Shown piece after piece: positions 19,786 through 42,271 of a stretch of DNA of 64,000 bases (the first letter of the stretch is position 1; every line of letters begins with the position of its first letter). The notes beneath the pieces are model-generated. The model saw only the letters and a list, made by a program, of their open reading frames with translations. It was not told the origin of the DNA and made no database searches. The DNA lies in IMG/VR virus record IMGVR_UViG_3300028805_000055, positions 32,001 to 96,000 of that record, one strand, 5' to 3'. The DNA is from a virus (lineage: Duplodnaviria; Caudoviricetes). The position numbers were made by a program, and so were the translations under genes.

Positions 19786-19901
19786 TAAATGTACTTTTTT
19801 AAGTCTTATATATAAAGAAACCAGCACGAGTTTCACAACTGATGCTGGCTGAATATGAAACATCATTAATCAAAACTTAAATCGTATAGCATTATGCAAT
19901 A

Positions 19902-19919
19902 TGTACTTTTAAAAGTACA
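19902..19919. promoter_or_regulatory. palindromic motif TGTACTT-N4-AAGT (9 copies in window)
   Basis: TGTACTTTTAAAAGTACA; other copies at 19790, 25161, 26936, 27951, 44186, 44577, 45137, 45678. Confidence 0.75.
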
Positions 19920-19931
19920 AAGGAGTCAATG

Positions 19932-20174
19932 CTACTTGGTCATAGCATTGAGTTCCTTCTTGATGCGTCTGGCGGTTTCACCTCTCCAGCTACTTGCGTT
20001 AGCAAGGAAATAGAGTACGATGCTCTTACCAGAGTCCCAGCCGTAGTTGTCATTGACTGACTCCAGGCACGACATTGCGTCAAGGTAAGGTTTTGCACCA
20101 AAGTAGATATTCTTCCAATCATTGCGGATTTCTTTTGCTACCTCGTACAGAGGTCTTGTTGTTTGCTTTGCCAT
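19932..20174 (-). CDS. small phage protein
   Basis: RPLYEVAKEI..DW...YFGA.PYL.AM...YFLANA..WRG; start MAKQ. Confidence 0.85.
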   Translation of the reverse strand: MAKQTTRPLYEVAKEIRNDWKNIYFGAKPYLDAMSCLESVNDNYGWDSGKSIVLYFLANASSWRGETARRIKKELNAMTK

Positions 20175-20308
20175 AATAACTAATGTTTTAAGTATTACCC
20201 TCGGACTATCCTTAGGTTTCTGTGTGCAAAGGTAATAATAAAAAATGGAACTACCAAATAATAGTCCCATTTTTTAACAACTTTTATGAATTTACTGATT
20301 CAAAACCT

Positions 20309-21034
20309 TTACACACCAAACTTGTAGTCTGCCTTAACCTTGCCGCTTGGTGTCTTGATGTTGATGTGTAGCTTGGTTTGGTTGCTGCCGTACCACTCTG
20401 ATTCTTGGTATTGGGCAATCTCATAGTCGTAATCGTCACCATAACTGAAACACTCTTCTACGTCAAATCTAAGGGTGTCCTTGCTTGTTCTGTGCTTGCG
20501 AATGGTGTCGATGATGTTCTGACATTGTTTGGCATCATAACACAGATACTTGCGTGTGCCACTCTCAGACCAACTTGAACGTTTGCCGCATACCCTTGCA
20601 AAGAATACTTCTGTTTCGCCAAGTGACTTGTTAGCATACTTCTCTAATAGTTTATATAGGCTGATGAACTCCTTGCACGGCTTGGCATAAATCTCAACTC
20701 TCTCAAAGCGAACTTCTTGGGGTGTCCAATAGCCATCGCCATAGGTCTTGCTATATACTTTGCACCTGACGTTGGAAAGGGCAACTGCATCATTAAGGAT
20801 GCGGATAAAGGCAGCATCGTCTATCTCCTTATCATCATAGGTATAGGAGTTACCGCCAAACTTAATCTCTGAATATGCCCACTTGGAGTTACGACCAAAG
20901 CCACTTGACCAATTGGATAACTTAATGTCTAACTCGCAGTTGGTTTTCTTGCCCATCTGCTTGAATGTTTCCTTGATGTGGTTTGCAATCAGCATAACCA
21001 ACTTTTCTCTCTGTAAATTCTTAATCTTCTCCAT
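20309..21034 (-). CDS. hypothetical early protein
   Basis: Own promoter at 21059. Confidence 0.85.
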   Translation of the reverse strand: MEKIKNLQREKLVMLIANHIKETFKQMGKKTNCELDIKLSNWSSGFGRNSKWAYSEIKFGGNSYTYDDKEIDDAAFIRILNDAVALSNVRCKVYSKTYGDGYWTPQEVRFERVEIYAKPCKEFISLYKLLEKYANKSLGETEVFFARVCGKRSSWSESGTRKYLCYDAKQCQNIIDTIRKHRTSKDTLRFDVEECFSYGDDYDYEIAQYQESEWYGSNQTKLHINIKTPSGKVKADYKFGV

Positions 21035-21125
21035 GATGTTGTTTAATTGATTTCACGCTGCAAAGATACAAATAAAAATTGGAATAACAATGAGTTATCC
21101 CAATCTTTTATATTCTTTTAACAAA

Positions 21126-21479
21126 TCATAGTGCAACTTGAATACTATCCTTCCACTTCTCTTTACACGCCCTTAGTTTTTTATACATATGTGCAAGTTG
21201 TAACTCCATATCCTTGATGGCTCTGCGCTGGAGTTCGATAGCTTTCCTCTGAGCGTCTTTCTTGTCCACATACCAATAAATCCTTGTTGGCTCATTTTCA
21301 ATCGCTCTGGAGGCTTTATTTGTAATCTGTGAGGGTGAATAATAGCTGAATGATATTCCTATCGTATCATCATCAATGTGGCGTATTGACTTCACCGCAA
21401 CTCTGTTCACACTTCCTGGGGTTGCACTCCAAAAATAAGAGCCTTCAACTAAATCTCCGAAAGTTCTCTTCTTTTGCAT
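21126..21479 (-). CDS. hypothetical early protein
   Basis: Operon packing. Confidence 0.75.
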   Translation of the reverse strand: MQKKRTFGDLVEGSYFWSATPGSVNRVAVKSIRHIDDDTIGISFSYYSPSQITNKASRAIENEPTRIYWYVDKKDAQRKAIELQRRAIKDMELQLAHMYKKLRACKEKWKDSIQVAL

Positions 21480-21691
21480 AACTCATTAAAGTTTTGTAAG
21501 TTGTTTACAATAGTTCTCTTAATAGCAATCCGAATATCGGAATCATTGTAGTCTGGATAACCAGATGTTTCTACCACGTCCTTACACACATCATCCAGAA
21601 TTGCGCTCTGGATGCTCTCAATGTCGCTTGCATCCCACCATTGGAATAGGCTAAGGATTTGCTTTCTAACGTTCTCTTTAAGTTCTTCCAT
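21449..21691 (-). CDS. hypothetical early protein
   Basis: Operon packing. Confidence 0.75.
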   Translation of the reverse strand: MEELKENVRKQILSLFQWWDASDIESIQSAILDDVCKDVVETSGYPDYNDSDIRIAIKRTIVNNLQNFNELCKRRELSEI

Positions 21692-21704
21692 AATCGTTAT
21701 TGTT

Positions 21705-21893
21705 TTATAGTGTATATACGTCTTTTCTCACATCATACTTCTGGTACTCAATCTTCTCACCTAAGAGCCTTGCAGTTCTCTTACAATCCAGAACATCTTC
21801 CCAAGTGCATCCCATTGTGGTGCGATAGCAGAATCCGTTATGAATCCAATCTACTGAATAGATATTCGTTTTCTTAACAATCTTTCTTCTCAT
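21705..21893 (-). CDS. hypothetical early protein
   Basis: Start MRRK. Confidence 0.7.
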   Translation of the reverse strand: MRRKIVKKTNIYSVDWIHNGFCYRTTMGCTWEDVLDCKRTARLLGEKIEYQKYDVRKDVYTL

Positions 21894-21897
21894 AGCC

Positions 21898-22248
21898 TTA
21901 ATCGTTTTCAATAAAGAATACATCTGTGTAATCACCTCCCATAAACTTCGGGGTTAACTTCTGTCTGCCCTTAAAGTCCTCCATTGCTTCTGCCCTATCG
22001 TTGAAATAGGTAATGCTCTGATAACCTACCAAGCCATTGTTATAGCGGATGGATGCGGGAACACCAAATCTATTCTCATAAATCGTTCCACAATCCTCTT
22101 TAACCTCTGTGTAGGCTACTGCATACTTGCAAGCCTTGAAAGAGCCACTAAAGACCTTTTTCTTATCCTCTCCGATAACGTAATAGTTGTTATCAATGGC
22201 GAAAGAAATTCGCTTGCCCTCTGTTGTAAATGATTGTCTTGTTCTCAT
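21898..22248 (-). CDS. hypothetical early protein
   Basis: Operon packing. Confidence 0.75.
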   Translation of the reverse strand: MRTRQSFTTEGKRISFAIDNNYYVIGEDKKKVFSGSFKACKYAVAYTEVKEDCGTIYENRFGVPASIRYNNGLVGYQSITYFNDRAEAMEDFKGRQKLTPKFMGGDYTDVFFIEND

Positions 22249-22556
22249 AACCTTATATCAATATCGTTAAATAACTTAGATGAATCCCACATATTTCTGT
22301 TCTCGTCCTTGCACCACTTCTCATATTGGTCGCACGATAGTCTTTCTTCAAGTTCTACCTTGAACACACAGACCTTATCACATCTGTATCGGTAGAGCAG
22401 GGTGTTAGCCTTTTTCCTTGCACTCTCAAAGTATGTGTAAGCCTTTATATGGTGACGGAAAATCCAACTCACCACATTACCCTCTTGTAGTGTGCATCCA
22501 ACTCCATCTACGAATACCACTACGATAAATCTTGTTGTTGTTGATACGTTTGCCAT
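22245..22556 (-). CDS. hypothetical early protein
   Basis: Start MANV, after promoter 22582. Confidence 0.75.
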   Translation of the reverse strand: MANVSTTTRFIVVVFVDGVGCTLQEGNVVSWIFRHHIKAYTYFESARKKANTLLYRYRCDKVCVFKVELEERLSCDQYEKWCKDENRNMWDSSKLFNDIDIRL

Positions 22557-22730
22557 AACTTTGTTGTTTATTGATTTCGGGTACAAAGGTAGTCATAATT
22601 TTCCATACTACCAAATTTATTAAGATTATTTAAGAAAAAAATGGCTGGGGTCTTTCACAAGTGCCCAGCCATAAAGAATGAATAACTAAAAACCTAAAAC
22701 TTAATATGTTATGACACAAAACCAAACTTC

Positions 22731-23414
22731 TTACCAATTTGCAGCCTTTCTAAAGACTTCTTTGTATATGGCTTGGAGTTCTTCCACCGACTTGCCAAAC
22801 AACTCGTCTACATGGCTCTTTGCGTACTCTTTGACTGCATCCTTGCCTGCGTAATAGGCTTTCCGCAATCTATCGTTATGCTCCATCCGATGCCAACAAT
22901 CCCACTTCTCATAGAAATAGTTACTTACGGGGTTGGTTATCTTCCATCCTGCAATGGATTCCAACTTCTTAGCCTTATCCCTCTCTGCCTTCTCAATATA
23001 CTTCCAATAGACGTACTCCATAAGGATGCAGCGCAGGGTGCGAACGATGTCCTCTGAATTGTAGGTGTATGAGCCTGCAATATGACCATACCAAGTGCCA
23101 CCTCTCTTGAACTCTGACAAACTTTTACCTATTGATGAATCAGTGCTACTATTTTGAATATAGAGCATCAGAAATGCCCTGCCTTGATACTCATAGATGA
23201 ACTCGATGGTGCTATTCCAATCGTTACCAACTCTGCGCTCTGAATTGATGTAGAATCTGTCCCTGCCATCCCTGCACTCCTTGTAGATACGGATGATGGT
23301 TGCATCATTGACGTTCATCACTTCTTTTGCGCTAAGGTTCTTAATGACCTCTAACTTCTTCTCTGCCTTTGTCCTCCCGAAAAGGAACTCATTGATGTTA
23401 ATGCTCTGTTCCAT
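22731..23414 (-). CDS. hypothetical early protein
   Basis: Own promoter at 23438. Confidence 0.85.
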   Translation of the reverse strand: MEQSININEFLFGRTKAEKKLEVIKNLSAKEVMNVNDATIIRIYKECRDGRDRFYINSERRVGNDWNSTIEFIYEYQGRAFLMLYIQNSSTDSSIGKSLSEFKRGGTWYGHIAGSYTYNSEDIVRTLRCILMEYVYWKYIEKAERDKAKKLESIAGWKITNPVSNYFYEKWDCWHRMEHNDRLRKAYYAGKDAVKEYAKSHVDELFGKSVEELQAIYKEVFRKAANW

Positions 23415-23538
23415 AATGATGTTGTTTAAATTGTCGATGCAAAGGTAGTCATTATTTCTGATACTACCAAATTTTTCTCGATTTTTTAATATCTTTTAAG
23501 AAATCCCCACCACCAAGTTGATGGTGGGGTCAGGTGCT

Positions 23539-24294
23539 TTAAATATACTTAGCCAGCAAAATCATGGCATTTTTGTTAGTCTTTAACTTGTTAATGGCAA
23601 TAACTGAAATCTGCCTAATTCTTTCCTCTGTCTGTCCGTAGTCCTCTGCCACCTGCCATCTGCTTTTTGCCGTAGTTCCAATGCCATAGAGTACGCAAAT
23701 GATGTTGGCTTCCTTTTCATCCAGCAGGCTATTGATAACTCTCAATAGGTCAGTCAACAATGACTCGTTAGACTCTTTATCAGTTGTGGTGCAAAGAACG
23801 TCACCCAATGTAGCATTATTATCATCATCAGTAAGGGGAGCATCCAGCGATGTGTGCCTTGTGGTGGCATCCTTATGGTAGTCGGCTACGATGCGGCTTG
23901 ACTTCTTAATCTCTTCGAGAATGGCAGCACGAATGTCATTGACTGCGAATGATAAGAACTTCACACCAATGGTAGGGTCGAACTTGTCTGCGGCTTTCAT
24001 CAGACCTATATTGCCAGCAGAAATCAAATCCATAGTAGTAAGGCAACCGCCACAACCATAGTAATGCTCTCTTACGATGGAGATAACACCACGCAGATTA
24101 GAGTTGATTAACTTCTCCTTTGCAGCCTTGTTACCAGCCTTAATCTGAAAAGCTAACTCCACTTCTTCATCAGTTGTCAGCACTGGGAACACATTCACTG
24201 CTGCGTAATAGGCAGCTAACTCGCTGGTTCTCTCTGTGATTACTTCACTATTCTTTTTACTTCCAAAATAGATGGAATTAAGTTTGTTTGTCAT
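23539..24294 (-). CDS. sigma70-family factor derived from Bacteroidota primary sigma, region 3 largely missing
   Basis: EEVELA, LINSNLR, DLISAGNIGLMKAADKFDP, SLDAP, TEERIRQI. Confidence 0.9.
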   Translation of the reverse strand: MTNKLNSIYFGSKKNSEVITERTSELAAYYAAVNVFPVLTTDEEVELAFQIKAGNKAAKEKLINSNLRGVISIVREHYYGCGGCLTTMDLISAGNIGLMKAADKFDPTIGVKFLSFAVNDIRAAILEEIKKSSRIVADYHKDATTRHTSLDAPLTDDDNNATLGDVLCTTTDKESNESLLTDLLRVINSLLDEKEANIICVLYGIGTTAKSRWQVAEDYGQTEERIRQISVIAINKLKTNKNAMILLAKYI

Positions 24295-24665
24295 AACTCT
24301 TTTAGTTTTAATTTGACGTTTACCAACTACTATCGGTTGGATTCGAGGGCAAAGGTACAACGAATTTTTCTAACTACCAAATTTTTCTCGAATATTTAGC
24401 ATTTTTTAAGAAAAAAACTTGGAACTACCCTATTTTGGTAGTCCCAAGCCTTATTAATGTGGTCTCGTCTTACTCTTGGCGTGACTCTGGATATGCTTGT
24501 TAAAGTCAGCCTTAATCTCTCTCATGCTCCTAACATGTACAGGGCTGTGGTGGTAGGGAGCTATCCTGCGCCCTGTAATTGGGTCGTAATACCTGTCTTC
24601 ATTCATATAGATATAATATTAAGATTTAAACGTGCCGCCAAGTCGTAGCAACTGCTTTATATTAT

Positions 24666-24896
24666 TTATGCCCAACGTTTCCAATATGCTATTGAATTTG
24701 ATGTGCTAAAACCAAAATACTCTTTTATCCTATGTTCTGTTTCATCACCATCGTCAGTACTTGTAATCCTGCTATCCCACTTCCCACGATGGTACTCACC
24801 ACTACGATATAACTCACCAATAAGTTTTTCGTTTCGTGTGCGCCAAATAACGAGTAATGACCCATCATCGTGTTTATACATTGCAATCTTTACCAT
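24666..24896 (-). CDS. hypothetical early protein
   Basis: Gene run. Confidence 0.7.
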   Translation of the reverse strand: MVKIAMYKHDDGSLLVIWRTRNEKLIGELYRSGEYHRGKWDSRITSTDDGDETEHRIKEYFGFSTSNSIAYWKRWA

Positions 24897-24922
24897 ATTC
24901 TTTATCTCTTTTTGTTTTTAGC

Positions 24923-25132
24923 CTATCCGTTATTAGTATATGCGTGGTCGAACTCATTGCGCAGGTCTTTGTACGTGTCTGCGTCCTCTACGAGTAATAC
25001 TTCACTCGGCTCTGCGCCACAGGCAAGGGCTTCTGTAGTGAACAGGGGAATATTCTCCCACTTGTCCTTAATCTCTTTCATCGTTTCTCCCTCGATGTAG
25101 ATGTCTGCTGAAAACTTAATTCTTATTTCCAT
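24923..25132 (-). CDS. hypothetical early protein
   Basis: Gene run. Confidence 0.7.
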   Translation of the reverse strand: MEIRIKFSADIYIEGETMKEIKDKWENIPLFTTEALACGAEPSEVLLVEDADTYKDLRNEFDHAYTNNG

Positions 25133-25178
25133 AGTGATATTGCTTTTAATATAGCCTACTTGTACTTTTCTAAGTACA

Positions 25179-25409
25179 TTATACCATTCTCAGAGTAACC
25201 TTTTCAATGTCACGTCCTTTGAGTGTTACTTCAAAACATGAGCAGCCTCTAACCCATTCCTCTGGTGACTTAACATCTGGTTCATACATACAATCGCAAG
25301 AGTATTCTGCAATAACCTCGCCATCGTACATCATCTTAATGACGTTATCGTTCTCAGCCTTACGAGCCAAACGATTTACTTGTCTTACTAACTTAGTTAA
25401 TTTATCCAT
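25179..25409 (-). CDS. hypothetical early protein
   Basis: After promoter 25437. Confidence 0.75.
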   Translation of the reverse strand: MDKLTKLVRQVNRLARKAENDNVIKMMYDGEVIAEYSCDCMYEPDVKSPEEWVRGCSCFEVTLKGRDIEKVTLRMV

Positions 25410-25495
25410 ATAATTCGTTATTTAATTGTTTGACGTGGCAAAATTAAGTAAAAAGATTGGAACTACCAAAGGATAGCCCAATCTTTTAATATCTT

Positions 25496-26113
25496 TTAAG
25501 ATTCTGTATCATAGAGTTTACTGAGGCGTTCCAGTTCTTTTTCCTCAAACTTCTCCATTTCCAGTATGTAGTCACGTTCCTCGCTGCCTCCCTGCCAGTC
25601 CAGTTCACGCTCGAAGCGTATAGCAGCATGATGGAGCAGGTCTACTGCTACGTCGTAGCCTCCGACCTCAGACATATTATAAATCTTCTGATAGATGTCG
25701 GCAGCAAGCAGGATGAATGTTTCTGCCAGTTTATAGGCTTTATCGTGAGTGTACTTCACAAACACCTTATTCTTGGGGTCACAATCCAGTTTACCATACT
25801 TCATGCACACGTCGTACTGGTTGATTCCATCGTCGATGCCAGTGTAATCACAGATGGTGTTCTGCTTTCTCGGACACTCCTTGATGCAATCCATCTTAGA
25901 ATAGGTCATAAAGAGTCCGCTACCATCAGTGGCGATTGCCAGTCCGTCGTAGAACTCCATTTCAATTTCACACTCACCGTTTTCGTCGAACTTGTAGAGG
26001 CTCTTAAAAGGCTCTTCCAGTTTCTTAAACGCCTTACGGTTTGCAGGTGTATTGCTCACCAGTATGGTGTCAATGTAGTTGGGGATAATTTCAAATGTTC
26101 TTTCCATAATCAT
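25496..26113 (-). CDS. hypothetical early protein
   Basis: Gene run. Confidence 0.8.
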   Translation of the reverse strand: MIMERTFEIIPNYIDTILVSNTPANRKAFKKLEEPFKSLYKFDENGECEIEMEFYDGLAIATDGSGLFMTYSKMDCIKECPRKQNTICDYTGIDDGINQYDVCMKYGKLDCDPKNKVFVKYTHDKAYKLAETFILLAADIYQKIYNMSEVGGYDVAVDLLHHAAIRFERELDWQGGSEERDYILEMEKFEEKELERLSKLYDTES

Positions 26114-26385
26114 GTTGTTTAAATATATTCGACATTTAATCTATCTAACACGCTTTCTAATTCTCTCTTAGGCTCGATGCCGCAATAGTACTGCCCTACA
26201 AGACAACTTATAAGGCGATAGTTCTCATCCTCCTTGTTGTGGGAATTGAGCCATCTTACACCTGCGTTATATGCTCCTATTGGTTTATTTGCTCCCATAA
26301 TGATAACGTTTTAAATTGTTTGACGCTGCAAAATTAAACAAAAAAAGTGGAACTGCCAAAGAAACAGCCCCACATTTAACAATTA

Positions 26386-26886
26386 TTAACGAATCACTAT
26401 GACTTTCTCAACAATCTGAATGTCCTCGTAGTAGTCGTCACAGGGGTCATTGATATACCACCTGTCGTTACTTTCTTCGATTTCAAAGTCCTCTTTCAAC
26501 TGCTTCTTGGTACGACCCATGTAGTGAGGGGACTCGTCCAAGATGGTATTCTTCTCATCCTGTAATACTTTCCTTGCTGCCTCTCTCGTGGTACAGGGTA
26601 CAGCATTGATAATGAGTTCACCGTCCACGTTGCTTTCCTGCTGTACTATATAAACTTTCTGGAGGCAGAAGGGATGCTGTATGACGTAATCACCCAACAG
26701 CAGTCTAACTACCTGTTCCCTGTCAGCCAGAGGAATAAGCGTGTGGTAGTCTCTCATCCAATCCATCAAGTCACCGTAGATGGTTTGTCTCTCGCTGTCA
26801 CTCTCCAGACTACTCTTATCCAATAGCTTTTCAACCAAATTTGGATGTTTGGTCAGAATCTCTTGATAAATCTCTGTTACTTCCAT
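26386..26886 (-). CDS. hypothetical early protein
   Basis: Gene run. Confidence 0.8.
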   Translation of the reverse strand: MEVTEIYQEILTKHPNLVEKLLDKSSLESDSERQTIYGDLMDWMRDYHTLIPLADREQVVRLLLGDYVIQHPFCLQKVYIVQQESNVDGELIINAVPCTTREAARKVLQDEKNTILDESPHYMGRTKKQLKEDFEIEESNDRWYINDPCDDYYEDIQIVEKVIVIR

Positions 26887-26955
26887 AATGTTATGCTGTT
26901 TAAATTGTGTATACGTGTTGTTAATATAGCTGGCTTGTACTTATTCAAGTCCAGA

Positions 26956-27201
26956 CTACTCTACGATGCTGATGATTTGCTCACCATAGCACCAATGGTT
27001 ATCATCCAGAGAGAAAGTGTATTCGACACCCTCTGCAAAGTTACCTGCTCTGTATTTGAACTCAACCTCATCAACAGGCTCACCATACTTCTCGCCACAC
27101 TCACATTCCTCGATGCCAATAACCTTAGCAGTCTTAGGAGTTCTGTCACCATGTAGGCGATACTTAACCTTTGTTCCAATTTTGATAATTTGCTTTGCCA
27201 T
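26956..27201 (-). CDS. hypothetical early protein
   Basis: After promoter 27229. Confidence 0.8.
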   Translation of the reverse strand: MAKQIIKIGTKVKYRLHGDRTPKTAKVIGIEECECGEKYGEPVDEVEFKYRAGNFAEGVEYTFSLDDNHWCYGEQIISIVE

Positions 27202-27308
27202 AATGTTTGATGTTTAATTGTTTGACGCTGCAAAATTAGACAAAAAAAGTGAGACCACCAAAGAATAGTCCCACTTTTAACAAACATTAAGAATCTGGTT
27301 ACAGCCCC

Positions 27309-27647: not shown

Positions 27648-27677
27648 AATTTTACACTTTTATATAGATTAATATTA

Positions 27678-27923: not shown

Positions 27924-27966
27924 ACTCGTGATTATTTTATATAACCTCTTTGTACTTATTCAAGTC

Positions 27967-28650: not shown

Positions 28651-28814
28651 TATTATTTAATTGTTTGACACTGCAAAATTAGATAAAAAAAGTGAGACTA
28701 CCAAATATTTTCAAGAAAACTTTTCATCTGATGGCAATTTTTAACCTTTATTTACACCTACGCCATCAATGTATTCTTAATTCTTTTTTGCACTTATTTA
28801 AGCCATAATCATTT

Positions 28815-29189: not shown

Positions 29190-29223
29190 GTTATTCTATT
29201 TTTAATTTATTATTTGATGATAG

Positions 29224-29275
29224 TGCAAAATTAGACAAAAAAAGTGAGACTACCAAATAATAGCCTCACTTTTAA
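29224..29275 (-). promoter_or_regulatory. fused terminator/promoter junction; representative of 30 minus-strand sigmaA promoters
   Basis: Transcript reads AAAAGTGAGGCTA-TTATTTGG-TAGTCTCACTTTTTTTGTC-TAATTTTGCA. Confidence 0.85.
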
Positions 29276-29281
29276 CATATT

Positions 29282-30282: not shown

Positions 30283-30431
30283 AATCTTGTTGCTTTAATT
30301 GTTTGACACTGCAAAATTAGATAAAATTCCTGTAACTACCAAATATTTTAAGATTATTTAAGAAAAAAGTAAGGCTGGAGTGCCTAGTACACCCCAGCCC
30401 CGTCACAACTAAATATAAGATATGGAAAGAG

Positions 30432-30890
30432 TTAAATCACATCTAACTTGTCATAGTAGACATTGTTTCCCATCCAGTCCCCGCAGTGTCCGTTGGCTAC
30501 ATTCTCAATCATTTCGTTGAATTCTGCCAGAACCTCTGCATCTTCCTCATCACCAAGCCCTAACTGCTCTCCCAGAATCTCTGTCAGTTCTTGTTTCAAC
30601 TCTGGAGTGCCAAACTGGGACTTGCGCACCATGCATACTGACGTATGACCGCTACTCTCATCACAATCGAAGCACAGAATATACGACTTTGGGTACACGT
30701 CGAATACCTGTGTCTCATCGACTCTGTTTGCAGGAATCGGAGCAACAAACTCAATGCCGCTTTCTAGTTCATCCTGTGAAAACAGGTCGGCATCCTTAGC
30801 CATCTGGATAATCGACTCCTTTGTAGTAGGCTCACACTTAATGAATGTGCTGCCATTCTTTGTCCGTAACTCGTAAATTGTCTTTCCCAT
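30432..30890 (-). CDS. acidic hypothetical early protein
   Basis: Gene run. Confidence 0.8.
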   Translation of the reverse strand: MGKTIYELRTKNGSTFIKCEPTTKESIIQMAKDADLFSQDELESGIEFVAPIPANRVDETQVFDVYPKSYILCFDCDESSGHTSVCMVRKSQFGTPELKQELTEILGEQLGLGDEEDAEVLAEFNEMIENVANGHCGDWMGNNVYYDKLDVI

Positions 30891-30920: not shown

Positions 30921-31039
30921 TTGAAAGGGAGCGAGGATTCGAACCTCCTTTCCGCTTCAACAGGAGCTACCTGTGTCTTAGCAGGGTCTTTATGCGGGAT
31001 ACGCACGGATGCTTTTACCAACCCATCACTTTCTCCCCT
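30921..31039 (-). ncRNA. tRNA-like RNA with expanded anticodon arm
   Basis: Acceptor AGGGGAG/CTCCCTT, T-arm GAGG-TTCGAAT-CCTC, D-like TGGTA loop; ~50 nt insert in place of the anticodon loop. Confidence 0.65.
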
Positions 31040-31936: not shown

Positions 31937-31948
31937 AATTATATAGCC

Positions 31949-32418: not shown

Positions 32419-32423
32419 ATATA

Positions 32424-32439: not shown

Positions 32440-32502
32440 AAAAAGCCAACCTATCTTCTCAGACTGGATGGCTTAGATGAATATGAATACATAATTTAAA
32501 AC

Positions 32503-32778
32503 CTAATTCTCTTCTACGTCGAAATGGAATAAGTAGTGCAAACCATTGCTCGTCTTAGTCCACGTGACAATACCATCCAGTGTGCCGTTACTGAATGTTA
32601 AGGATAATCGGTCATGAGTGTCGTCGATACGACTCATCTTAATATCCTGTGGATTCTCTGAGAATACATCGTGCTCAGCGATTCTGTCGCTCAGTATCTT
32701 AACAACCTTTTCAGTGTCCTTGTTGAGGAACACGCAGTTGTCGAATCCGTTCTTGATAGCTTTTGCTCTCTGTGCCAT
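32503..32778 (-). CDS. hypothetical early protein
   Basis: After promoter 32802. Confidence 0.8.
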   Translation of the reverse strand: MAQRAKAIKNGFDNCVFLNKDTEKVVKILSDRIAEHDVFSENPQDIKMSRIDDTHDRLSLTFSNGTLDGIVTWTKTSNGLHYLFHFDVEEN

Positions 32779-33550: not shown

Positions 33551-33782
33551 AACCTTATACTATTAATTGTTTAACGTACTGGTGAATAATACACCTTGCT
33601 CTGTCGCTCAATCAGACTGGTGTAGTCTGGCACTGGCGTTGCCAGAAACCATGATGTAACCAGAGAGGTGTTAGTTCTGTTTTTCTTATCTTTCTTACCC
33701 ATAGTTGTATTATTTTAATTCTGGTGCAAAATTAGATAAAAAAAATGAGACTACCAAATGTAGCCTCATCTTTTAACACTTT

Positions 33783-34004: not shown

Positions 34005-34008
34005 ATTC

Positions 34009-34431: not shown

Positions 34432-34444
34432 AATACCTGTTAGT

Positions 34445-34909
34445 TTAAATTAAGTTCTGAATAATATCCATAGCAGTGCTAATTTCTTCCATAGCAGGCT
34501 CATTACCCTCTGCATAGTTGTAAGCCAGTTGCAGGTTATTGTAGGCTGTTTCCAGATAACTCTTAGCATTTTCGCTAAGTTCACCATTCTGCATTGGAAC
34601 ACGCTGTACGCTAACCTCACCTATTGGCTGAGGAAACTCACCTAAGTGGTCTGTAAGAGTTAACACATCTAAATCGTTCAGTTGTGCCTCTGCAAGAAAC
34701 TCTGCATACTCTGTTCTGCCCTCTTGGTTGGCATCGTCAATCCAGATGTCAATGGTGTCAGCATCGGCTCTTTCAAGGGTATAGTTCCCATCGACAAACT
34801 TGTCTCGCCTAACCATGTTTACAACCATTTCGTGCTGCTCTTGTGACAACTCGAAAGTTTTGATAACGTAACCGCATCCTGCGGTCTGTAAAAGTCCTAA
34901 ATTCTCCAT
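34445..34909 (-). CDS. acidic hypothetical early protein
   Basis: Start MENL after promoter 34938. Confidence 0.8.
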   Translation of the reverse strand: MENLGLLQTAGCGYVIKTFELSQEQHEMVVNMVRRDKFVDGNYTLERADADTIDIWIDDANQEGRTEYAEFLAEAQLNDLDVLTLTDHLGEFPQPIGEVSVQRVPMQNGELSENAKSYLETAYNNLQLAYNYAEGNEPAMEEISTAMDIIQNLI

Positions 34910-35079
34910 ATCTCTTATATTTAATGTTGTTTGACGCTGCAAAATTAGGTAAAATAATCGAAACTACCAAATTTTTTATGTTAAAACTTCTAAAAACAAG
35001 GGGAGCACCCCAATCTGGAGTGCTCCCATCAACCTAACAATCATTATGGAAAACAAACAGCGTTATCACAACGCAACGA

Positions 35080-35153
35080 TGGTGTATCCAGAGGGACTTG
35101 AACCCCCGACCCCCACATCAAATGTGGTGCTCTACCAACTGAGCTATAGACAC
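35080..35153 (-). tRNA. atypical tRNA (anticodon arm 2 nt short; TTG/Gln or undetermined)
   Basis: GTGTCTA-TAGCTCAGTTGGTAGAGCA-CCACA-TTTGA-TGTGG-GGGTC-GGGGGTTCAAGTCCCTC-TGGATAC-ACCA. Confidence 0.8.
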
Positions 35154-35163
35154 TTAAAAAAAT

Positions 35164-35940
35164 GAGCGGGGTGGGACACCAACACCTTGATGGCAAAGGC
35201 GAGTGCGTTAAGCAGCGCAGTTCGGCATCTGTGTGGGTCTCTCCCACCTCACTCTCTAATGGGGCATGGCAAGCGCATAATATACTCGGCTAAATTGGCT
35301 CGCTCGCCTAACATCGCCCCTCTCTGTTGAAAAATGGGCATCCTATAACTAACATCCGCATTGCTTGGCAGTAGAATTGTGCGCACGTTACCCCTTATGC
35401 GGTATTGTCTCAACTTCGGTATGCCCTAATCTCCCTTGGCAGTGGTTTAATAGCCAATACGGATGCGTCCAAATGCGGCTCTCTTATGGCTCTCTTGTAG
35501 CGGCGGTGGGCGCAATGTGCCTCGGAAATGGCGGCTCTCTGGATATTAGTCGCTCATTGACACTTACGGCTCGCGGGACTATCTCATGTGTCCCAAACTC
35601 ACTTGCCCTTTGGCATTAAAGTTTACTCATGTGGCGGCATTGTAACGTTACACGAACTTTACCCTATCTCCACCTTGTTGGGGTTTTTTATTTTATTAAA
35701 ATCGTCTATCATCTAAGTATCATTCCTTAGTTGGGTCGGTCTCTAATCATACTCTATGATGTGGGGATTTTTCCATGCACCCCTTTACATTTTTAAATTC
35801 ATGCTCGATTATATAATACTCCGAAATTATCTAACTATGTACAAGCCCTTTAGGGCGGGGGTCGTTCATTACTATTCATCACTGCATACTTTTAATATTA
35901 ATACTACTTGGTCTGGGGGACTGGCGTCAGCCCGTGCGTG
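35164..35940 (-). ncRNA. cluster of structured non-coding RNAs or one large ncRNA
   Basis: No credible ORF, GC-rich; closed stems at 35164-35254, 35261-35320 and 35336-35426; directly upstream of a tRNA. Confidence 0.6.
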
Positions 35941-35942
35941 AC

Positions 35943-36065
35943 CTAACGCATTGGACGGATTTTGTAGAGCTGTGTCTTAGTACCGTCCCCGTTTTCTCTT
36001 ACTTTGCTTGGCATCGCCACGACTCTGATGTTAGCAATGGAGCGTAGAAATCTCTTTTTACTCAT
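35943..36065 (-). CDS. 40-aa basic peptide (below ORF-track cutoff)
   Basis: MSKKRFLRSIANIRVVAMPSKVRENGDGTKTQLYKIRPMR directly after promoter 36087. Confidence 0.55.
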   Translation of the reverse strand: MSKKRFLRSIANIRVVAMPSKVRENGDGTKTQLYKIRPMR

Positions 36066-36144
36066 AACTCATATCTGTTTTAGTAGTGCAAAGATATAAG
36101 TTTTTTTTGAGAAATCCAAATTTCACGTCACATTTTTGTCATCT

Positions 36145-36363
36145 TTAACAATATTCTGCTTGGTAATCCAGAAACTCCTGCGCATCCAATGTATCACGGA
36201 TTTCTTCTTCTAACTGGTCGTCATTGATGTTACCATCTTCATCTTCGAAGCGTGATAGGGATAATCCCTGCAACTCCACGACGAAATTACCGTCAGCATC
36301 ATGTATGTCAATACCGCTCAATGTATCGGTGGCTACATAGCCTGTTTCACTCTTATACTCCAT
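36145..36363 (-). CDS. small acidic early protein
   Basis: Gene run. Confidence 0.75.
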   Translation of the reverse strand: MEYKSETGYVATDTLSGIDIHDADGNFVVELQGLSLSRFEDEDGNINDDQLEEEIRDTLDAQEFLDYQAEYC

Positions 36364-36385
36364 GATTAAATCTCCTTTTAAAAGT

Positions 36386-36489
36386 GGGCTGTGGGTGGCA
36401 GGACAATCTGCCGCTTGGTGGGTAGGGGGGTAGTATCGGTTAGGGGGTTTCCCGACCCACTTGCTCCGCTGTCCGTCGCACCCAAGCCC
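36386..36489 (-). ncRNA. candidate structured RNA
   Basis: GGGCT.TGGGTG/CACCCA.AGCCC closing stem; nested GGACAG/TTGTCC and GTGGGT/ACCCAC. Confidence 0.55.
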
Positions 36490-36514
36490 TGTTGATTATG
36501 ACTAAGAAAAGAAA

Positions 36515-36871
36515 CTAAAGAGAGTTATCAATGTTCTCGTGAATGAATGCAGCCACGTCGTAGACTTCATCCCAATTGATGTTTTCTAAGGGATATTCGC
36601 TGCAATCTTCAACCTGTAAGGCAATATCACCGTCCTTGTCGAGAAACACGCCCTCAACCATTGAGAATGCGTTACTGGCGTACTCTGGGTGATTACCTCC
36701 ATCGTAGGTGACTGAAACCATGTTGTCAACTTCTGTAAAGTCGATGCTGCCACCATGTGCTTCCAGAACCTTTTTGATGTATGTCTCGCACTTCTGGCGT
36801 ACCTTTCTCTGTGCTGGCAGGATGGTGTCATATAGAGCATCAGCCTGCTTGAAATACGTTGCCCTTTTCAT
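36515..36871 (-). CDS. hypothetical early protein
   Basis: Gene run. Confidence 0.8.
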   Translation of the reverse strand: MKRATYFKQADALYDTILPAQRKVRQKCETYIKKVLEAHGGSIDFTEVDNMVSVTYDGGNHPEYASNAFSMVEGVFLDKDGDIALQVEDCSEYPLENINWDEVYDVAAFIHENIDNSL

Positions 36872-36874
36872 GCC

Positions 36875-37405
36875 TTAATACTTTTTAAATCCAGACTTAG
36901 ACCAGCCGATTTCCTTGTGCAGCCAACCACCACGAGCCTCGTCAAAAAGATAGATGTGCTGGCAGTCGATACGATTGTAAACGTCTTTCTGGGTCTTACC
37001 TTGAATGGGCTTAATGTTATTCCAACGTTCGTACACCCACTTCTGGTCTTCTCTGCCTCTGTTGGCATAGTGGCGAACTATATCATCGTCTATGACGCTG
37101 CAAAAGCCACCTACAACCAGATTTCGTGCAGTCTCGTAATCGTTGAACTTCGCTTTGAGAGAATCACCTACACCACCATTAATGTAACCATCGTTGTGGC
37201 AGTAGATACCGATATATACCTCTTTCAGTTCCACTGGTTCACTGCGCTCTTCTCCCCCTTCATCCCGCCAGACCTTACCATCAAGGTCTTTGTAGAGCCA
37301 ATTGTCTAACTTCACTCCATTTGGCAGTTTGTTGGTATCGAACTTGAACGTTTTACCGATGTCCTCTGGACGAACCTTAATAATTACACAACTTCTTGTA
37401 GCCAT
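36875..37405 (-). CDS. phage protein (MATRS...IYCH.DGY family)
   Basis: Start MATRS; IYCHNDGY...VG motif. Confidence 0.8.
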   Translation of the reverse strand: MATRSCVIIKVRPEDIGKTFKFDTNKLPNGVKLDNWLYKDLDGKVWRDEGGEERSEPVELKEVYIGIYCHNDGYINGGVGDSLKAKFNDYETARNLVVGGFCSVIDDDIVRHYANRGREDQKWVYERWNNIKPIQGKTQKDVYNRIDCQHIYLFDEARGGWLHKEIGWSKSGFKKY

Positions 37406-37877
37406 AATGATTTTGTTGTTAAGTTCCCCAGATGGACTATCCAATCTGGGGGTGAATCGGGGTAGTCTTTTATAACTTGTTTCCCTATCACGCTGCAAAA
37501 GTAAGCAAAATATTTGAGATAACCAAATAATTTCCAAACTTTTTTTTCATACATATAAAAAATTTCTGGTTTCTTTACAAAAAGAGGGAGGCACAGCATC
37601 CTGTACCTCCCAAATACAACCAATAATTAACCAATAACTAAAACAACAAAAAACCTATGAACAAAACTAAAATCACTCCTGTCTTAATATCTGGCTCTCC
37701 CTCTCACCACAGATGGTAAACTCCTTAATGTCTGCTTCCTCTGCCAAGTTACGGGCATTATCCAGAGCCTCGCCCTCATCGTTACCAGTTACATCTACGA
37801 TGATGGAGGCGTTATAATTCAATTGAATAGTATATTTCCTCATGATGTTTAAATGTTTAAGTTTCCATAATAAATGA

Positions 37878-38204
37878 TTATCCTACCTCTTTTGGCTTAA
37901 TCTCAACACCATCCTTATACAGCGTGTTAAACGCAATAAGAATGTGTAGTACGGTAATCTCGTCGGCACACTCAATCCCACCAACAGACTCGATGATGGC
38001 ATCAGCCATTTCCTTGCTATCCTTGATAGCTTTCATCTGTGGGTAGAACATATCAAACCTGTGACCCCTGTAGTTTTCACAAACAGCATGACCGTCGTAG
38101 ATGTCAAACTCAATGGGCTTCTTAAAACCCTCAATGTTTAGTTTCTCCGTGCAAATCTTTTTGCCGTAGAACTTTTCCCAAATTTTGCTTTCGTTCTGTT
38201 CCAT
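37878..38204 (-). CDS. hypothetical early protein
   Basis: After promoter 38231. Confidence 0.8.
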   Translation of the reverse strand: MEQNESKIWEKFYGKKICTEKLNIEGFKKPIEFDIYDGHAVCENYRGHRFDMFYPQMKAIKDSKEMADAIIESVGGIECADEITVLHILIAFNTLYKDGVEIKPKEVG

Positions 38205-38302
38205 TATATTTTAATGTTTCAATTAACTGGTGCAAAGATATAAAAAAAAAATTAGAATCACAAGTTTTCGTGACTCTAATTTCTTAAAAAAGCTTAATAT
38301 GG

Positions 38303-38689
38303 TTATGGAAGAACTTTCTTGATAACGTCTACCGTCCTGTGACCCAGTATAACAAAAACCCTGTCACCATGTTTTAAGAATCTAACGTGATGCCTCTCCT
38401 TGAACTCCCTGCCTGTGGTTAAGTCTACTACCGTCTCTTCCAAATTACACTCACTGAAATCATTCTTGGTGTATCTCAGACTATAGGCATGGATGCCGCA
38501 ACCACTTCCAGCGCAATCTATATAGAGGCTGTCACCTGTAAACGTGTAGAAAGCCTCAGAATCGTCTGTTATATACTTCCCTTGCAGTTGTGAAGGCTTA
38601 ACCTTTTCAACGTCCTGTGACAGCCCGTAGGAGGCTATAGAGAGCGTCAACAGCAGGACTACCATTGCGAATACACTAAAACGTCTCAT
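38303..38689 (-). CDS. predicted exported protein
   Basis: N-terminal signal peptide. Confidence 0.75.
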   Translation of the reverse strand: MRRFSVFAMVVLLLTLSIASYGLSQDVEKVKPSQLQGKYITDDSEAFYTFTGDSLYIDCAGSGCGIHAYSLRYTKNDFSECNLEETVVDLTTGREFKERHHVRFLKHGDRVFVILGHRTVDVIKKVLP

Positions 38690-38885
38690 ACTCTATTACT
38701 TTGAATCTGCCACCTCGAAATGGTCTACCTCACAATCCAGAACTTCTACCACTTCATCCTCTGGGGTCGGGGTGAAATCCAGATGGTCAATAATATCTTC
38801 TGCACTTGTAACGTCTGTGTCAACTATAATTTTTAAGTTGACGTTTAAATAAATCTTACTCATAATCTTATAAATTTATATGTTA

Positions 38886-39311
38886 TTACTTTAAATCTTC
38901 GTCATTGTCGCCCTTGTAGCCACAGGTAAGATACTCCCAGACTGCTTCGTACACACTGCTGAGTCCTGCACATGGTATCAGTCGCTCGAAATCGTTGGCA
39001 TCAACGTCTGTGTAGAGGTCGCCAATATCATCATTCTCATTGGGGCACTGCTCCAGATATTCATCGCTGTCGATATTCCAATTAATATCAAACTTAATCT
39101 TACCGTCCTCCAGAATCACTTTCAGAACTTCTGCCTCCATGTAGTCAACGTCCCAATCGAAATCTGGTACGCCGATAATAAAGGCATGAGGGGCTTGGCT
39201 ACCTGCAAGGTCAACCACTGCCTTTTTGTGATTAACCATGAGGGCTAAAATCTCTGCAACAATCTGCTTGTGCAGGTTCTTTGTCTCACCGTAGAAATTT
39301 TTCTTTTCCAT
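38886..39311 (-). CDS. acidic hypothetical early protein
   Basis: After promoter 39342. Confidence 0.8.
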   Translation of the reverse strand: MEKKNFYGETKNLHKQIVAEILALMVNHKKAVVDLAGSQAPHAFIIGVPDFDWDVDYMEAEVLKVILEDGKIKFDINWNIDSDEYLEQCPNENDDIGDLYTDVDANDFERLIPCAGLSSVYEAVWEYLTCGYKGDNDEDLK

Positions 39312-39403
39312 AACTCTTATTATTTAATTGTTGTTTGATGGTGCAAAATTAGACAAAATATCTGAGATAACCAAATTTTCAGTGTTAAAGAGTGTAAACT
39401 GGG

Positions 39404-40258
39404 TCAAAATACCCAGTCTACAAACTCATTGTTCACCTTAACCACAAATGGTGTATCTGGCACTCTAAACTTGCGCTTACCGTCCTTTTCGTCAATGTAG
39501 TAGTCATTGGCAGTCTTGTGATAGTGCAAACCCACAATATGCTTTGCAGGGTCGAGATAACGCATATCATAGGTGTTACCGTCACAGATAGGGTAGCCAT
39601 GAAAACTCTTAGGCAACTTGTCGCTAAAGAACACTACAGCCACCTTACCGCCAGCGTTCAAGAACTTCTCGCAATCATCCCAATTATAGCCATTGTAGCT
39701 AAGAGTAAGGTCATAGTTGCTATACTGCTGCATCAGCTTAATGCGAGAGGGCACTTTGGTATAGTCATAGAATTGAACATTGGGAAACAACTCTAAGAGA
39801 TTAAGTCCTGTCTCTGGGTCTTTAAAAAGCACTGGTGACAGGTCGCTTGTTCCGTTGAGACGTACAGAAAACTCCATGCCGAGACGGTTGGCTCTGTTCT
39901 GATAACGTCTAAGTTCGTGAATCAGCAGGGACATGAACAATGCCCTATCATCATAGAATAACTTGGTTTTCTTGATGCGTGAACGGTTAACAAACGAATC
40001 CAACACATCACCTCCCTTATCCACTTGTTCAAGTTGAGAAGCCTTATTGTGACCAGAACCATTAAGACAGAATGCCTTGCAATACTGGCTGTTAGGGCAA
40101 ACATTGTGCCCAGACATATCCGCAGGGGCGAGATAAAGGCAGTACGTCATAGTACCGTTCTTATAAGATAACTTCATCTTAGCACTCTGGGCTACACTAC
40201 CTAAGTAGGAGATACCCAAGTTTCTCAGTTCCTTACCATAAGAAAATTTCTGTTCCAT
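39404..40258 (-). CDS. GP88-like protein (Cys-rich, radical-SAM-like)
   Basis: CP....C...CLN.SG, RLNGTSDL, FYDYTK, VAVVF. Confidence 0.75.
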   Translation of the reverse strand: MEQKFSYGKELRNLGISYLGSVAQSAKMKLSYKNGTMTYCLYLAPADMSGHNVCPNSQYCKAFCLNGSGHNKASQLEQVDKGGDVLDSFVNRSRIKKTKLFYDDRALFMSLLIHELRRYQNRANRLGMEFSVRLNGTSDLSPVLFKDPETGLNLLELFPNVQFYDYTKVPSRIKLMQQYSNYDLTLSYNGYNWDDCEKFLNAGGKVAVVFFSDKLPKSFHGYPICDGNTYDMRYLDPAKHIVGLHYHKTANDYYIDEKDGKRKFRVPDTPFVVKVNNEFVDWVF

Positions 40259-40436
40259 AATCTAAATGTTTAAGTTGTTATTAATGTTTGACGGTGCAAA
40301 ATTAGACAAAAAAATCGAAACTACCAAATTTTTTTGGAAAAATCTTATTGTCCTATATAAACTTTTCTGGTTTCTTTACAAAAGATAATAAAAACAGGGT
40401 GAAGCCAAATTGATATCACCCTGTATCTTTATGAAA

Positions 40437-40510
40437 AAGGGGTGTGGCTATGGAAAGCCAGCGCCAGCTAAAATAGGAATCGAACCTATACATACACCTT
40501 TGCACCCCTT
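40437..40510 (-). ncRNA. small T-loop-containing structured RNA
   Basis: AAGGGGTG/CACCCCTT enclosing ATAGG-TTCGATT-CCTAT and TGGCT-TTCCAT-AGCCA. Confidence 0.5.
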
Positions 40511-40514
40511 ATAC

Positions 40515-40904
40515 CTATTCCTGTGGATTAAACTCTACCTGTGCCATCTGTGTACCACAATCATCCCTACCACAGCAGATATTGTAACCAGACAATAGGT
40601 TTTCGTCGTAGGTGGTAAGAATCATATCATCATCAATTCTTTCACCGCAATTGGGACAGGCGATAACAAAGTCCCCATAGTTATCAAGTGGGAAATACTT
40701 AACGCCCATCCCAGATAGTTCTAAAATCGCCTGTGAGCTGCAAATAACGTCGTAGATGGCTAGTATACCATTCTTACCGTCGAATGAGTTCTGGAGGCGT
40801 AAAACGCCCAATCTGATAAGTATATTAATGAAATTGCTAATAGGCTTCTCATACCAGTCAGTGACGTAGATGCGAATCTTATATTTCTTCTTATTCTTTG
40901 CCAT
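40515..40904 (-). CDS. zinc-ribbon protein
   Basis: CPNCG...CCGRDDCG. Confidence 0.75.
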   Translation of the reverse strand: MAKNKKKYKIRIYVTDWYEKPISNFINILIRLGVLRLQNSFDGKNGILAIYDVICSSQAILELSGMGVKYFPLDNYGDFVIACPNCGERIDDDMILTTYDENLLSGYNICCGRDDCGTQMAQVEFNPQE

Positions 40905-40970
40905 AGAGCGTTTATTTTATGTTAGTGGATAAGAGGAAGCCCCACTATCTGTGAGGCTTCCAGAGAGGGT

Positions 40971-42065
40971 TTATGCAACCGACAGAAGCATTTCCTGTGC
41001 TTTCTGGATTTTGTTGTAGGCGTTACCACCCATGAGGCTATCGAACTTGATTTCCTCATTCGAGAAATTAGCCTCGTTCTGGAAATAGGTGGTGAGACCG
41101 TTGATGAACCACATACCTGTGCCTGCCTCTTGAATGTCCTGCCCGATGCCAGACTCCATAGCGTTCTTCACGTTGAGGAACAGGTTACGTCCACGAGTCT
41201 TGATGCCCTCAGACTCAATATCGCCTGTCTCATGGAACACCTTTGCAGCCTCTGGAGAGAGAAGCACATCAGCCAAGATGTTATCCAACTCCTTTTCAGA
41301 GAGGCGAATGTTACGCAGATGCTCAAACTGCTCTTTCAGACCAGATGCGTACACCTCGTAGAGATTGAGGGTCTTGTATGCGAACTCCGCATTTTCCTCC
41401 TGCAACAAGTCGAGGCGAGACATCACGTTACGACTGTGACGGAAAGAGATACGCCCGATATTGTTGTGCATAGCGAGATTGAGAGTGTTGTTGCACACCA
41501 CACGAATCGGGGTGATAACACATCGTACAGAACCTGTACCGTCATGAGAGGTGGTGAAGCAGGCGTACATATCTACCAAATCATCACGTCTGGCATCTAA
41601 GACTATCTGCTTTGGGAACTTAGCGGTAACGAACACACGCTCACCACGACCTAAGACACCAGCGGTTTCGATAACAGGTGTATTGTCCCTGTCTGTGTTC
41701 TTACCAGAGACCAACAGGTCTACGAACTTGAAAGCATCGCTATTCTGGACAATGCCGTAGGAATCAGATACCACGCCCAGAGACTGATTGAGGTCAGTGC
41801 GTACCGTAGCCATAGTGTTGGGGATAACCAGAGAGAGCAATGTATCAGCATCAATGCCACCATTCAAAATCTTGTCTTGCACCTCTGGGGTCAGAACCAT
41901 GACGGGCTGCATCATCACGTTATAGTCTGCATGAGAGAGTTTTAACGCCTCATCAACGTGCATTGCGCCATCTACCTGCTGTCCGAGGCTGTGCCATGCC
42001 AGACCGCTTTTCTTGTTCTCTACAAAGGAGTAAACTCCGTTTCTGTTTTCAATATTTGCTGCCAT
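40971..42065 (-). CDS. DUF932/TIGR03299-family phage/plasmid-like protein
   Basis: AWH.LG, LGVV...Y..VQN, ETAG.L..G, SHDG, RVVCNNT, RH motifs. Confidence 0.9.
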   Translation of the reverse strand: MAANIENRNGVYSFVENKKSGLAWHSLGQQVDGAMHVDEALKLSHADYNVMMQPVMVLTPEVQDKILNGGIDADTLLSLVIPNTMATVRTDLNQSLGVVSDSYGIVQNSDAFKFVDLLVSGKNTDRDNTPVIETAGVLGRGERVFVTAKFPKQIVLDARRDDLVDMYACFTTSHDGTGSVRCVITPIRVVCNNTLNLAMHNNIGRISFRHSRNVMSRLDLLQEENAEFAYKTLNLYEVYASGLKEQFEHLRNIRLSEKELDNILADVLLSPEAAKVFHETGDIESEGIKTRGRNLFLNVKNAMESGIGQDIQEAGTGMWFINGLTTYFQNEANFSNEEIKFDSLMGGNAYNKIQKAQEMLLSVA

Positions 42066-42271
42066 AATCTTAATGTTTTTGTTAGGCTACCGCAGGACTA
42101 TCCTTTGGTTTCACGCTGCAAAATTAGACAAAAAAATCGAAACTACCAAATATTTTCGTAAAAACTTATAGGACAATATAAAGATTTAACGTTTGTTCAC
42201 ACAAATGGGGCACATTTTCACAAATGCACCCCATCCAAAAAACAAATCATTTAATATGGAAACAAAAACAT

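Follow-up and report, generated by a model that had tools for sequence, protein, structure and literature searches.

Candidate anti-start-region RNA elements at the 3' ends of early transcripts in a Bacteroidota phage

What is the role of the short G/U-rich tracts, each holding a CAU, that stand just ahead of the terminators in the early genes of a Bacteroidota phage? The question is raised by a stretch of 64,000 nucleotides (hereafter the window), bases 32001-96000 of a single IMG/VR virus record (IMGVR_UViG_3300028805_000055; 153,679 bp), in which the minus strand holds every gene from ~19 to 43.7 kb, an early-gene block. A preliminary description, made from the sequence of the window, took these tracts for a family of phage small RNAs (sRNAs) directed against start codons. 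The reading that we prefer, at a probability of about 0.52, is that they are RNA-level anti-start-region elements at the 3' ends of early transcripts, which would act on the phage's own early mRNAs.

The steps would be as follows. The carriers are mRNA 3' untranslated regions (3'UTRs), plus one tRNA trailer, in which the spacer would remain mostly unpaired beside a stable, GNRA-capped terminator hairpin. Provided that such RNAs are made and are stable, their CAU and U/G-rich flanks would pair in the cell with the AUG and the A/C-rich leader, free of a Shine-Dalgarno (SD) signal, of phage early mRNAs, whether in trans or in cis. Such duplexes would keep the 30S subunit from binding, provide RNase III with a double-stranded substrate, or both, and the effect would be repression: synthesis of early proteins would fall as these transcripts build up.

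Spacers between stop codon and terminator

All of the elements share one anatomy. A stop codon or the 3' end of a tRNA is followed by a G/U-rich, C-poor spacer with a CAU, then by a hairpin with a U-run, and then by a promoter. This arrangement is found at seven loci and at a weaker eighth; every seed and loop quoted in the preliminary description was recovered in place on the minus strand, and two further cases, at 38286-38302 and 36490-36514, can be added to its list. Please note that the locus at 34992-35060 follows a tRNA (35080-35153), not a protein gene. In the list below and throughout, relatives are IMG/VR phages of like architecture obtained from protein-anchored searches.

19850-19885, minus strand: S1 spacer with UUUCAUAUUC; terminator ~19820-19849, loop UUGUGAAA; start-region pairing no better than that of shuffles
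22671-22730, minus strand: S2 spacer, 3'UTR of gene 22731-23414; three CAU among its four C's; terminator 22643-22670
30402-30431, minus strand: S3 spacer, 3'UTR of gene 30432-30890; terminator 30371-30401
32473-32502, minus strand: S4 spacer, 3'UTR of gene 32503-32778, upstream of tRNA-Leu; terminator ~32445-32472 with a conserved GAGA-loop top
34991-35077, minus strand: S5 element, 3' trailer of tRNA 35080-35153; 81.8 bits with the R1 model (see below)
36490-36514, minus strand: S13 spacer with UCAUAAUC, 3'UTR of gene 36515-36871; precedes a long G+C-rich hairpin and U-run; z -2.9
37612-37672, minus strand: S6 spacer, 3'UTR of gene X; its lone C sits in CAUA; terminator 37586-37611
37673-37843, minus strand: gene X, 56 aa, conserved in all relatives including 295-412-kb phages
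38286-38302, minus strand: S8 spacer, CCAUAUU right after the stop of gene 38303-38689; terminator 38246-38285
40389-40440, minus strand: the weaker copy, UUUUUCAUAAAG and a terminator; a tRNA-like hairpin upstream itself holds UUUCCAUA
42233-42271, minus strand: S7 spacer, 3'UTR of operon 43605-42272; terminator 42207-42232, loop UUGUGAAA

The terminator loops are UUGUGAAA in three elements and CUGAGAAG in one, GNRA tetraloops on closing pairs, and the S7 terminator has a weak U-run. In predicted folds of nine elements the spacers are mostly single-stranded beside strong terminators. Each element shares its transcript and terminator with its parent: S5 starts 3 nt past the tRNA end, and the others lie between stop codon and terminator. 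Two tRNA-like pieces with a T-arm GGTTCGA(A/T)TCC, one in a leader (~30930-31020) and one in a 3'UTR (~40450-40510; both minus strand), are called by neither ARAGORN nor Rfam, and the second holds another UUUCCAUA.

Are these, then, discrete trans-acting sRNAs, as was proposed? The promoters speak against it. A Bacteroidota-type promoter, TTTGGTAG-N16-TAnnTTTG, occurs 15 times in the window against 0.01 expected (14 on the minus strand, one on the plus), and all 15 matches lie downstream of terminators; one spacer has a chance TAnnTTTG, without a -33 element. No element has a promoter of its own, and all are 3'UTRs of mRNAs or, once, the trailer of a tRNA.

The early leaders are short, A/C-rich and without SD signals, and many end in (A/G)UUAUGG. 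With the spacer limits drawn when the claim was already known, a caveat for all spacer statistics here, CATA turns up in 9 of the 11 spacers that run from stop codon to terminator, where shuffling at matched composition gives 1.13 and attains 9 in none of 20,000 trials (P<5e-5), and 15 of the 40 spacer C's that have two bases after them begin a CAT. A weight matrix of 49 start regions, scanned antisense, reaches 10 bits or more at 6 sites in the 5.4 kb of intergenic DNA (1.28 in shuffled sequence, P=0.001) and at none in 20.5 kb of coding DNA. To this extent the earlier claim is upheld: composition alone does not give the antisense relation between spacers and start-codon regions. There are 12 copies of TTTCCATA in the window, with 3.9 expected, and all four on the minus strand fall in such intergenic spacers. 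When paired with the 49 start regions, five of nine spacers form better duplexes than their own shuffles (z -2.1 to -6.7, the latter for S3), and in 4 of 9 C-poor spacers a C precedes the CAU, mirroring the G at +4 of start regions.

The same feature is kept in relatives. CATA is invariant in four orthologous intergenic alignments in which the flanking bases drift; that of S6 is unchanged across 4 phages, and the CAT of S4 is retained in 3 orthologs. The ortholog of S3 in L007 keeps 21 of 24 spacer bases next to a terminator stem of unrelated sequence.

Could the signal come instead from the other strand? Read on the plus strand, each site looks like an A-rich Bacteroidota leader with an ATG, as true starts of micro open reading frames (micro-ORFs) would. 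The preliminary description saw no credible gene behind these ATGs, and rightly so: the frames run to 2-47 aa, are not conserved and share no common peptide, and one of them is antisense to a tRNA. The S4 frame has 3 codons in the window and is longer in relatives, the array contains no plus-strand promoter, and the indels in the S5 hairpin would shift any frame. We rejected plus-strand coding on the short frames, the missing shared peptide and these indels, and give the micro-ORF explanation next to no credence.

Predicted pairing with early start regions

Which start regions might the spacers meet? Partners were sought by antisense BLAST of each spacer against the genome, and the best duplex genome-wide joins S7 to the leader of gene X, with 24 of 27 positions complementary (E 1.6e-4). 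The partners that need to be named are the following.

37853-37879, minus strand: leader of gene X, partner of S7; an upstream AUG frame of three codons (AUG GAA ACU UAA)
34905-34930, minus strand: start region of gene 34445-34909, partner of S3 (22/26, E 0.017)
23409-23420, minus strand: start region of gene 22731-23414, partner of the S5 core (perfect 12/12)

The last of these confirms, as a perfect 12-mer, a match that had been noticed between the seed at 35040 and the leader of 22731-23414; the S5 core is also complementary to other start regions with AUCAUUAUGG. Host mRNAs and the phage's own early genes had both been suggested as targets. It is the latter part of that suggestion that stands, in that the phage's own early start regions appear as partners, with co-variation for one pair, S7 and X.

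For S7 and X, complementarity recurs at the same two positions, in different sequence each time: in L001 over 41 nt (E 5e-4), in G009/G008 as a perfect 13-mer extended across the AUG, and in G007 over 28 nt at 93% (E 6e-7). Cognate duplexes average -27.5 kcal/mol, non-cognate ones -18.5, and only the true assignment of 120 permutations reaches this value, a P that is optimistic in that the lineages amount to two or three related groups. We would call this good evidence, not overwhelming evidence. In G007 and L121, the spacer orthologous to S8 likewise matches the gene X leader in antisense, perfectly over 13-15 nt. For S3, co-variation was not borne out, the partner seen in the window failing to recur in L001/L007. 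Gene X and its neighbours match no Pfam or PHROGs family.

Two side observations belong here. An upstream AUUAUGGAA "decoy" AUG lies a few nucleotides before the real start in the leaders of two conserved genes (37859-37879 in the window; ~6880-6920 of L122, from G007), and it may be a docking site for the S5, S7 and S8 cores. At 61960-61974, within gene 61445-63256 (603 aa), 15 nt in a row are complementary to the 5' part of S4 without a mismatch (E 0.005), perhaps by chance.

It is worthwhile asking whether such matches need RNA at all. S7 and the X leader are also imperfect inverted repeats around a 4.4-kb block, and S3 resembles a complete inverted copy of a short leader with its AUG. The array as a whole consists of repeated terminator-promoter-leader cassettes like those of T4-type PeSL, which recombine (PMC4122927). 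The spacers might thus be DNA-level by-products without RNA function: recombination between cassettes may have left inverted promoter-leader fragments, or inverted repeats may flank a DNA segment. However, no copy is accompanied by a plus-strand promoter remnant, and the conservation of CATA in orthologs, together with the near identity of the S5 core in phages of 150 to 412 kb, argues for selection. Gene conversion would hardly be expected between repeats so short (27-41 bp), so diverged (80-93% identity) and so distant (4 kb), and yet they track each other across lineages. Finally, no recombinase or transposase family was found in four scanned genes of the bracketed block (38303-38689, 38696-38863, 38886-39311 and 40515-40904 being outside the scan). 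We consider this explanation quite unlikely.

If the preferred reading of RNA-level anti-start-region elements is correct, do they act in cis or in trans? In read-through folds of whole intergenic regions the spacer pairs with the next leader (19 pairs for S3, 20 for S5 and 20 for S6), and in several units the CAU falls on the AUG. The start regions of a spacer's own operon rank 21, 13, 8, 33, 2, 10, 27 and 13 of 49, which is high for S6 only, second of 49 against the first start region of its own operon. S7 and X are 4.4 kb apart in different units, so trans action is favoured for that pair. Our guess is that trans action is rather probable and cis action, on transcripts that read through a terminator, somewhat short of an even chance; both may occur.

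A conserved tRNA trailer, and how the readings compare

Is any of these elements a recognisable RNA family? S5 is made up of a 5-bp hairpin (35060-35074), ~32 unpaired nucleotides (35028-35059) and a terminator (35001-35027); the unpaired stretch, ~32-45 nt across the motif, carries the cores UUUUCCAUAAU and UUGUUAGG. A pattern scan placed the motif in ~19 of the 80 IMG/VR stretches listed (16-17 contigs, several of them of 295-412 kb), nearly always just 3' of a tRNA. In the first set of loci, covariance model R1 finds 22 instances, 18 of them distinct, the window included. In the resulting alignment, which was fitted to R1 and is hence biased toward structure, 99.3% of cells are paired, compensatory changes occur at 13 of 17 pairs, and covariation, seen in both helices, scores 0.80 (0.23 in shuffles). 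The unpaired core is kept in sequence and is near-identical across phages of 150 to 412 kb.

Because the pattern scan itself imposes a conserved core, the search was repeated on 13 loci fetched via protein X. The element is present in 11 of these 13 loci anchored on gene X, those of 295-412-kb phages included, 1.9-4.0 kb downstream of X. S5 has no match in Rfam. It is a conserved, covariation-supported RNA motif absent from that database, and can be read as complementary to the consensus of early start regions. An internal hairpin in the core, suggested by RNAalifold, was weak and without covariation, and was set aside.

The other elements had been grouped with it as one homologous family. With R1, the S7 region (42195-42282) scores 25.9 bits (E 0.01), S2, S3, S1 and S8 score 17-20, and bare terminators score 16-18. 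Common descent of all of the elements is thus unsupported, since the model separates only the 42-kb element from bare terminators. The S5 motif has a jumbo-phage form, whose 3' half is similar to GUUUUAGGUUUUUAGUU of S2.

The surroundings of S5 deserve a mention in their own right. The unit 35160-36147 (minus strand) has a promoter at ~36100-36135, a conserved 40-aa basic ORF at 35943-36065, and then ~780 nt of G+C-rich non-coding sequence that ends in a long-range stem with a U-run, followed by the tRNA and S5. The 3' part of this non-coding sequence is conserved in L032, L046 and L051 and has no Rfam match at E<=1.

A conserved host target might account for the strong conservation of the S5 core. 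This brings us to the possibility that the elements are FopS/GibS-like sRNAs by which mRNAs of the host, probably a bacterium of the Prevotella or Bacteroides type from sources such as those of the IMG/VR relatives, are repressed, for example those of susC-like or defence genes. An unpaired U-rich anti-AUG seed followed by a terminator is how FopS has been described, and a FopS-like sequence has been reported in a Bacteroides phage (PMC11697453). Kinship with FopS is not supported: none of the elements has its own sigma-ABfr promoter, and in Rfam searches of the region from 19 to 44 kb no sRNA family, Bacteroides sRNAs included, was matched at gathering score or at E<=5, the only hits at gathering score being two tRNAs. 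The partners that can be demonstrated are phage start regions. We find a host-directed role very doubtful.

It is important to weigh what tells against our own reading, beyond the relatedness of the co-varying lineages noted above. Four spacers, S1, S2, S4 and S8 (19, 22, 32 and 38 kb), pair with the 49 start regions as their shuffles do, and the complementarity of U/G-rich tracts to A-rich leaders is partly a matter of composition alone. L003 has no S7-X pairing. Apart from S7-X and S3, the partners are generic: the next start region is not preferred (ranks 13, 12, 20, 10, 21, 8, 2, 44 and 37 of 49), and, given how similar the leaders are, it does no better than the other 48. For S5, an exact bipartite pattern search for a conserved specific target in five records found S5 alone, and gene X ranks 2nd to 26th among its partners, the top partners being non-orthologous. 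In the whole 295-kb G003, the two best antisense matches of S5 are start regions of genes without a homolog in the window phage.

A near-invariant S5 core facing differing leaders, with no conserved specific RNA target, would suit a site bound by protein. The spacers might accordingly be 3'UTR signals for recognition or stability, read by a protein or RNase (e.g., an RRM-type RNA-binding protein, a phage factor or a processing endonuclease), with leader complementarity as a side effect of U/G-rich sequence facing A/C-rich sequence. The short conserved CAUA could be a cleavage or binding motif, and the four spacers that pair no better than shuffles also fit. This explanation leaves the joint change of S7 and the gene X leader in four lineages unaccounted for, as well as the C before the CAU in 4 of 9 spacers, which mirrors the +4 G, and the 22-27-nt matches to particular start regions. 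We regard it as unlikely.

Returning to the preferred reading, a broader version can be put forward tentatively, as a possibility that we would not yet bet on. A wide clade of Bacteroidota phages, of 150 to >400 kb, may time the shut-off of early genes by RNA, not protein; the S5 motif and paralogous 3'UTR seeds would form a pan-early-gene anti-start-region system for SD-less mRNAs, in which seeds such as S7 have co-evolved with targets such as gene X.

Why would this matter? To our knowledge, post-transcriptional control is poorly known in Bacteroidota, which have no Hfq and mostly no SD signals, and none has been described for their phages. If the reading is true, an SD-less start region can be targeted through its AUG and A-rich flank, early gene expression is timed by phage-encoded means, and a new and widely conserved RNA motif exists outside Rfam. 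S7 and gene X would then be a concrete, genetically testable pair, and translational repressors for Bacteroides and Prevotella could be built from the elements as short natural seeds.

The early-gene array and known systems

How is the array built around these elements? The window codes for a UvrD-type helicase and for proteins of the DUF932 and GP88 types. Intrinsic terminators, that is, a G+C-rich hairpin followed by a U-run, number 34 between 19 and 38.9 kb against 13.5 expected. The intergenic units come in two forms. In the long form, to which all loci of the preliminary description belong, the order is stop codon, G/U-rich spacer, G+C-rich terminator and promoter. In the compact form, the next promoter has its -33 TTTG inside the terminator hairpin. 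A representative promoter is the following.

42119-42150, minus strand: early promoter TTTGGTAG-N16-TAnnTTTG, one of 14 minus-strand copies, each 3' of a terminator

Compact terminator-promoter fusions are found on the minus strand at 29240-29273, 27245-27278, 33730-33770, 25460-25479 and 26347-26373. Their -33 TTTG(G) lies in the hairpin loop, the 3' arm and U-run serve as the promoter spacer, and most have TGTTAAAAG ahead, right after the stop codon. In the long form, a conserved TTATATTGTCC(T)ATAAG-type element stands between terminator and next promoter (42165-42195, 40345-40375 and 37545-37575; also in L001 and L003).

Two other features were observed. A palindrome, (G)TACTTnnnAAGTAC(A), is repeated at 19901-19920, 25160-25179, ~26940-26955, ~27950-27965 and ~45680-45700, in intergenic regions without a host-type promoter, and is found in L003, L004 and L007 too; its role may be that of an operator or of a middle/late promoter element. 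Some 160 nt past the sole plus-strand early promoter (14045-14076) stands a terminator on the plus strand (14235-14259), and this unit (14045-14265) may be a small RNA or mini-gene unit.

What known systems do the spacers resemble? The T4 RegA protein provides phage-timed shut-off of early mRNAs at start regions, and lambda sib provides structure-dependent RNase III control through terminator read-through, at a single site on its own upstream gene. Both are functional analogies only, RegA being a protein and sib a single site. Among enterobacterial regulatory RNAs derived from 3'UTRs and tRNA spacers are CpxQ, SroC and the 3' external transcribed spacer (3'ETS) of leuZ, all of which rely on Hfq and RNase E. 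The phage elements resemble them in having a terminator common with the parent transcript and, in S5, a position directly 3' of a tRNA, as in the leuZ spacer; they differ in their phage setting and anti-AUG seeds, and their processing is only putative. Bacteroides has no Hfq (PMC13370968).

Closer in host range are FopS and GibS of B. thetaiotaomicron, which are likewise multicopy and have targets near the start codons of SD-less mRNAs (PMC11697453). The folds of nine elements agree with theirs. FopS, however, has its own sigma-ABfr promoters, a conserved R1 seed, RbpB binding and an Rfam entry (PMC11697453), whereas the phage elements have no such promoter and match neither the R1 seed nor an Rfam model.

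T4-type PeSL are repeated cassettes of terminator and early promoter between small early genes (PMC2839356, PMC4122927). The window has similar composite terminator-promoter cassettes among its small early genes, with a stem-loop directly upstream of a repeated early promoter, and, at the level of gene content, the window and L001/L003 do not agree in what lies between cassettes. PeSL have been described as recombination and regulatory cassettes, no antisense-to-leader segment being described in them, and the promoters here are Bacteroidota-type.

By analogy, the nearest known mechanism would be pairing of the icaR type between a 3'UTR and a ribosome-binding region, adapted to SD-less leaders. 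In Staphylococcus aureus icaR mRNA, such pairing joins the 3'UTR to the 5'UTR at its ribosome-binding region (PMC3868564), and in Listeria an mRNA-mRNA interaction joins the hly 3'UTR to prsA2 (PMC8722363). As in icaR, a short 3'UTR motif just 5' of the terminator is complementary to an initiation region. The icaR motif represses translation and invites RNase III, whereas the phage elements are known from their sequence. Because the leaders are of the Bacteroidota type, without SD signals, the phage motif is not anti-SD, as that of icaR is, but anti-AUG and anti-A-rich leader. Finally, some ten transcription units of the phage carry it, and its best partners lie for the most part on other mRNAs and not in its own 5'UTR.

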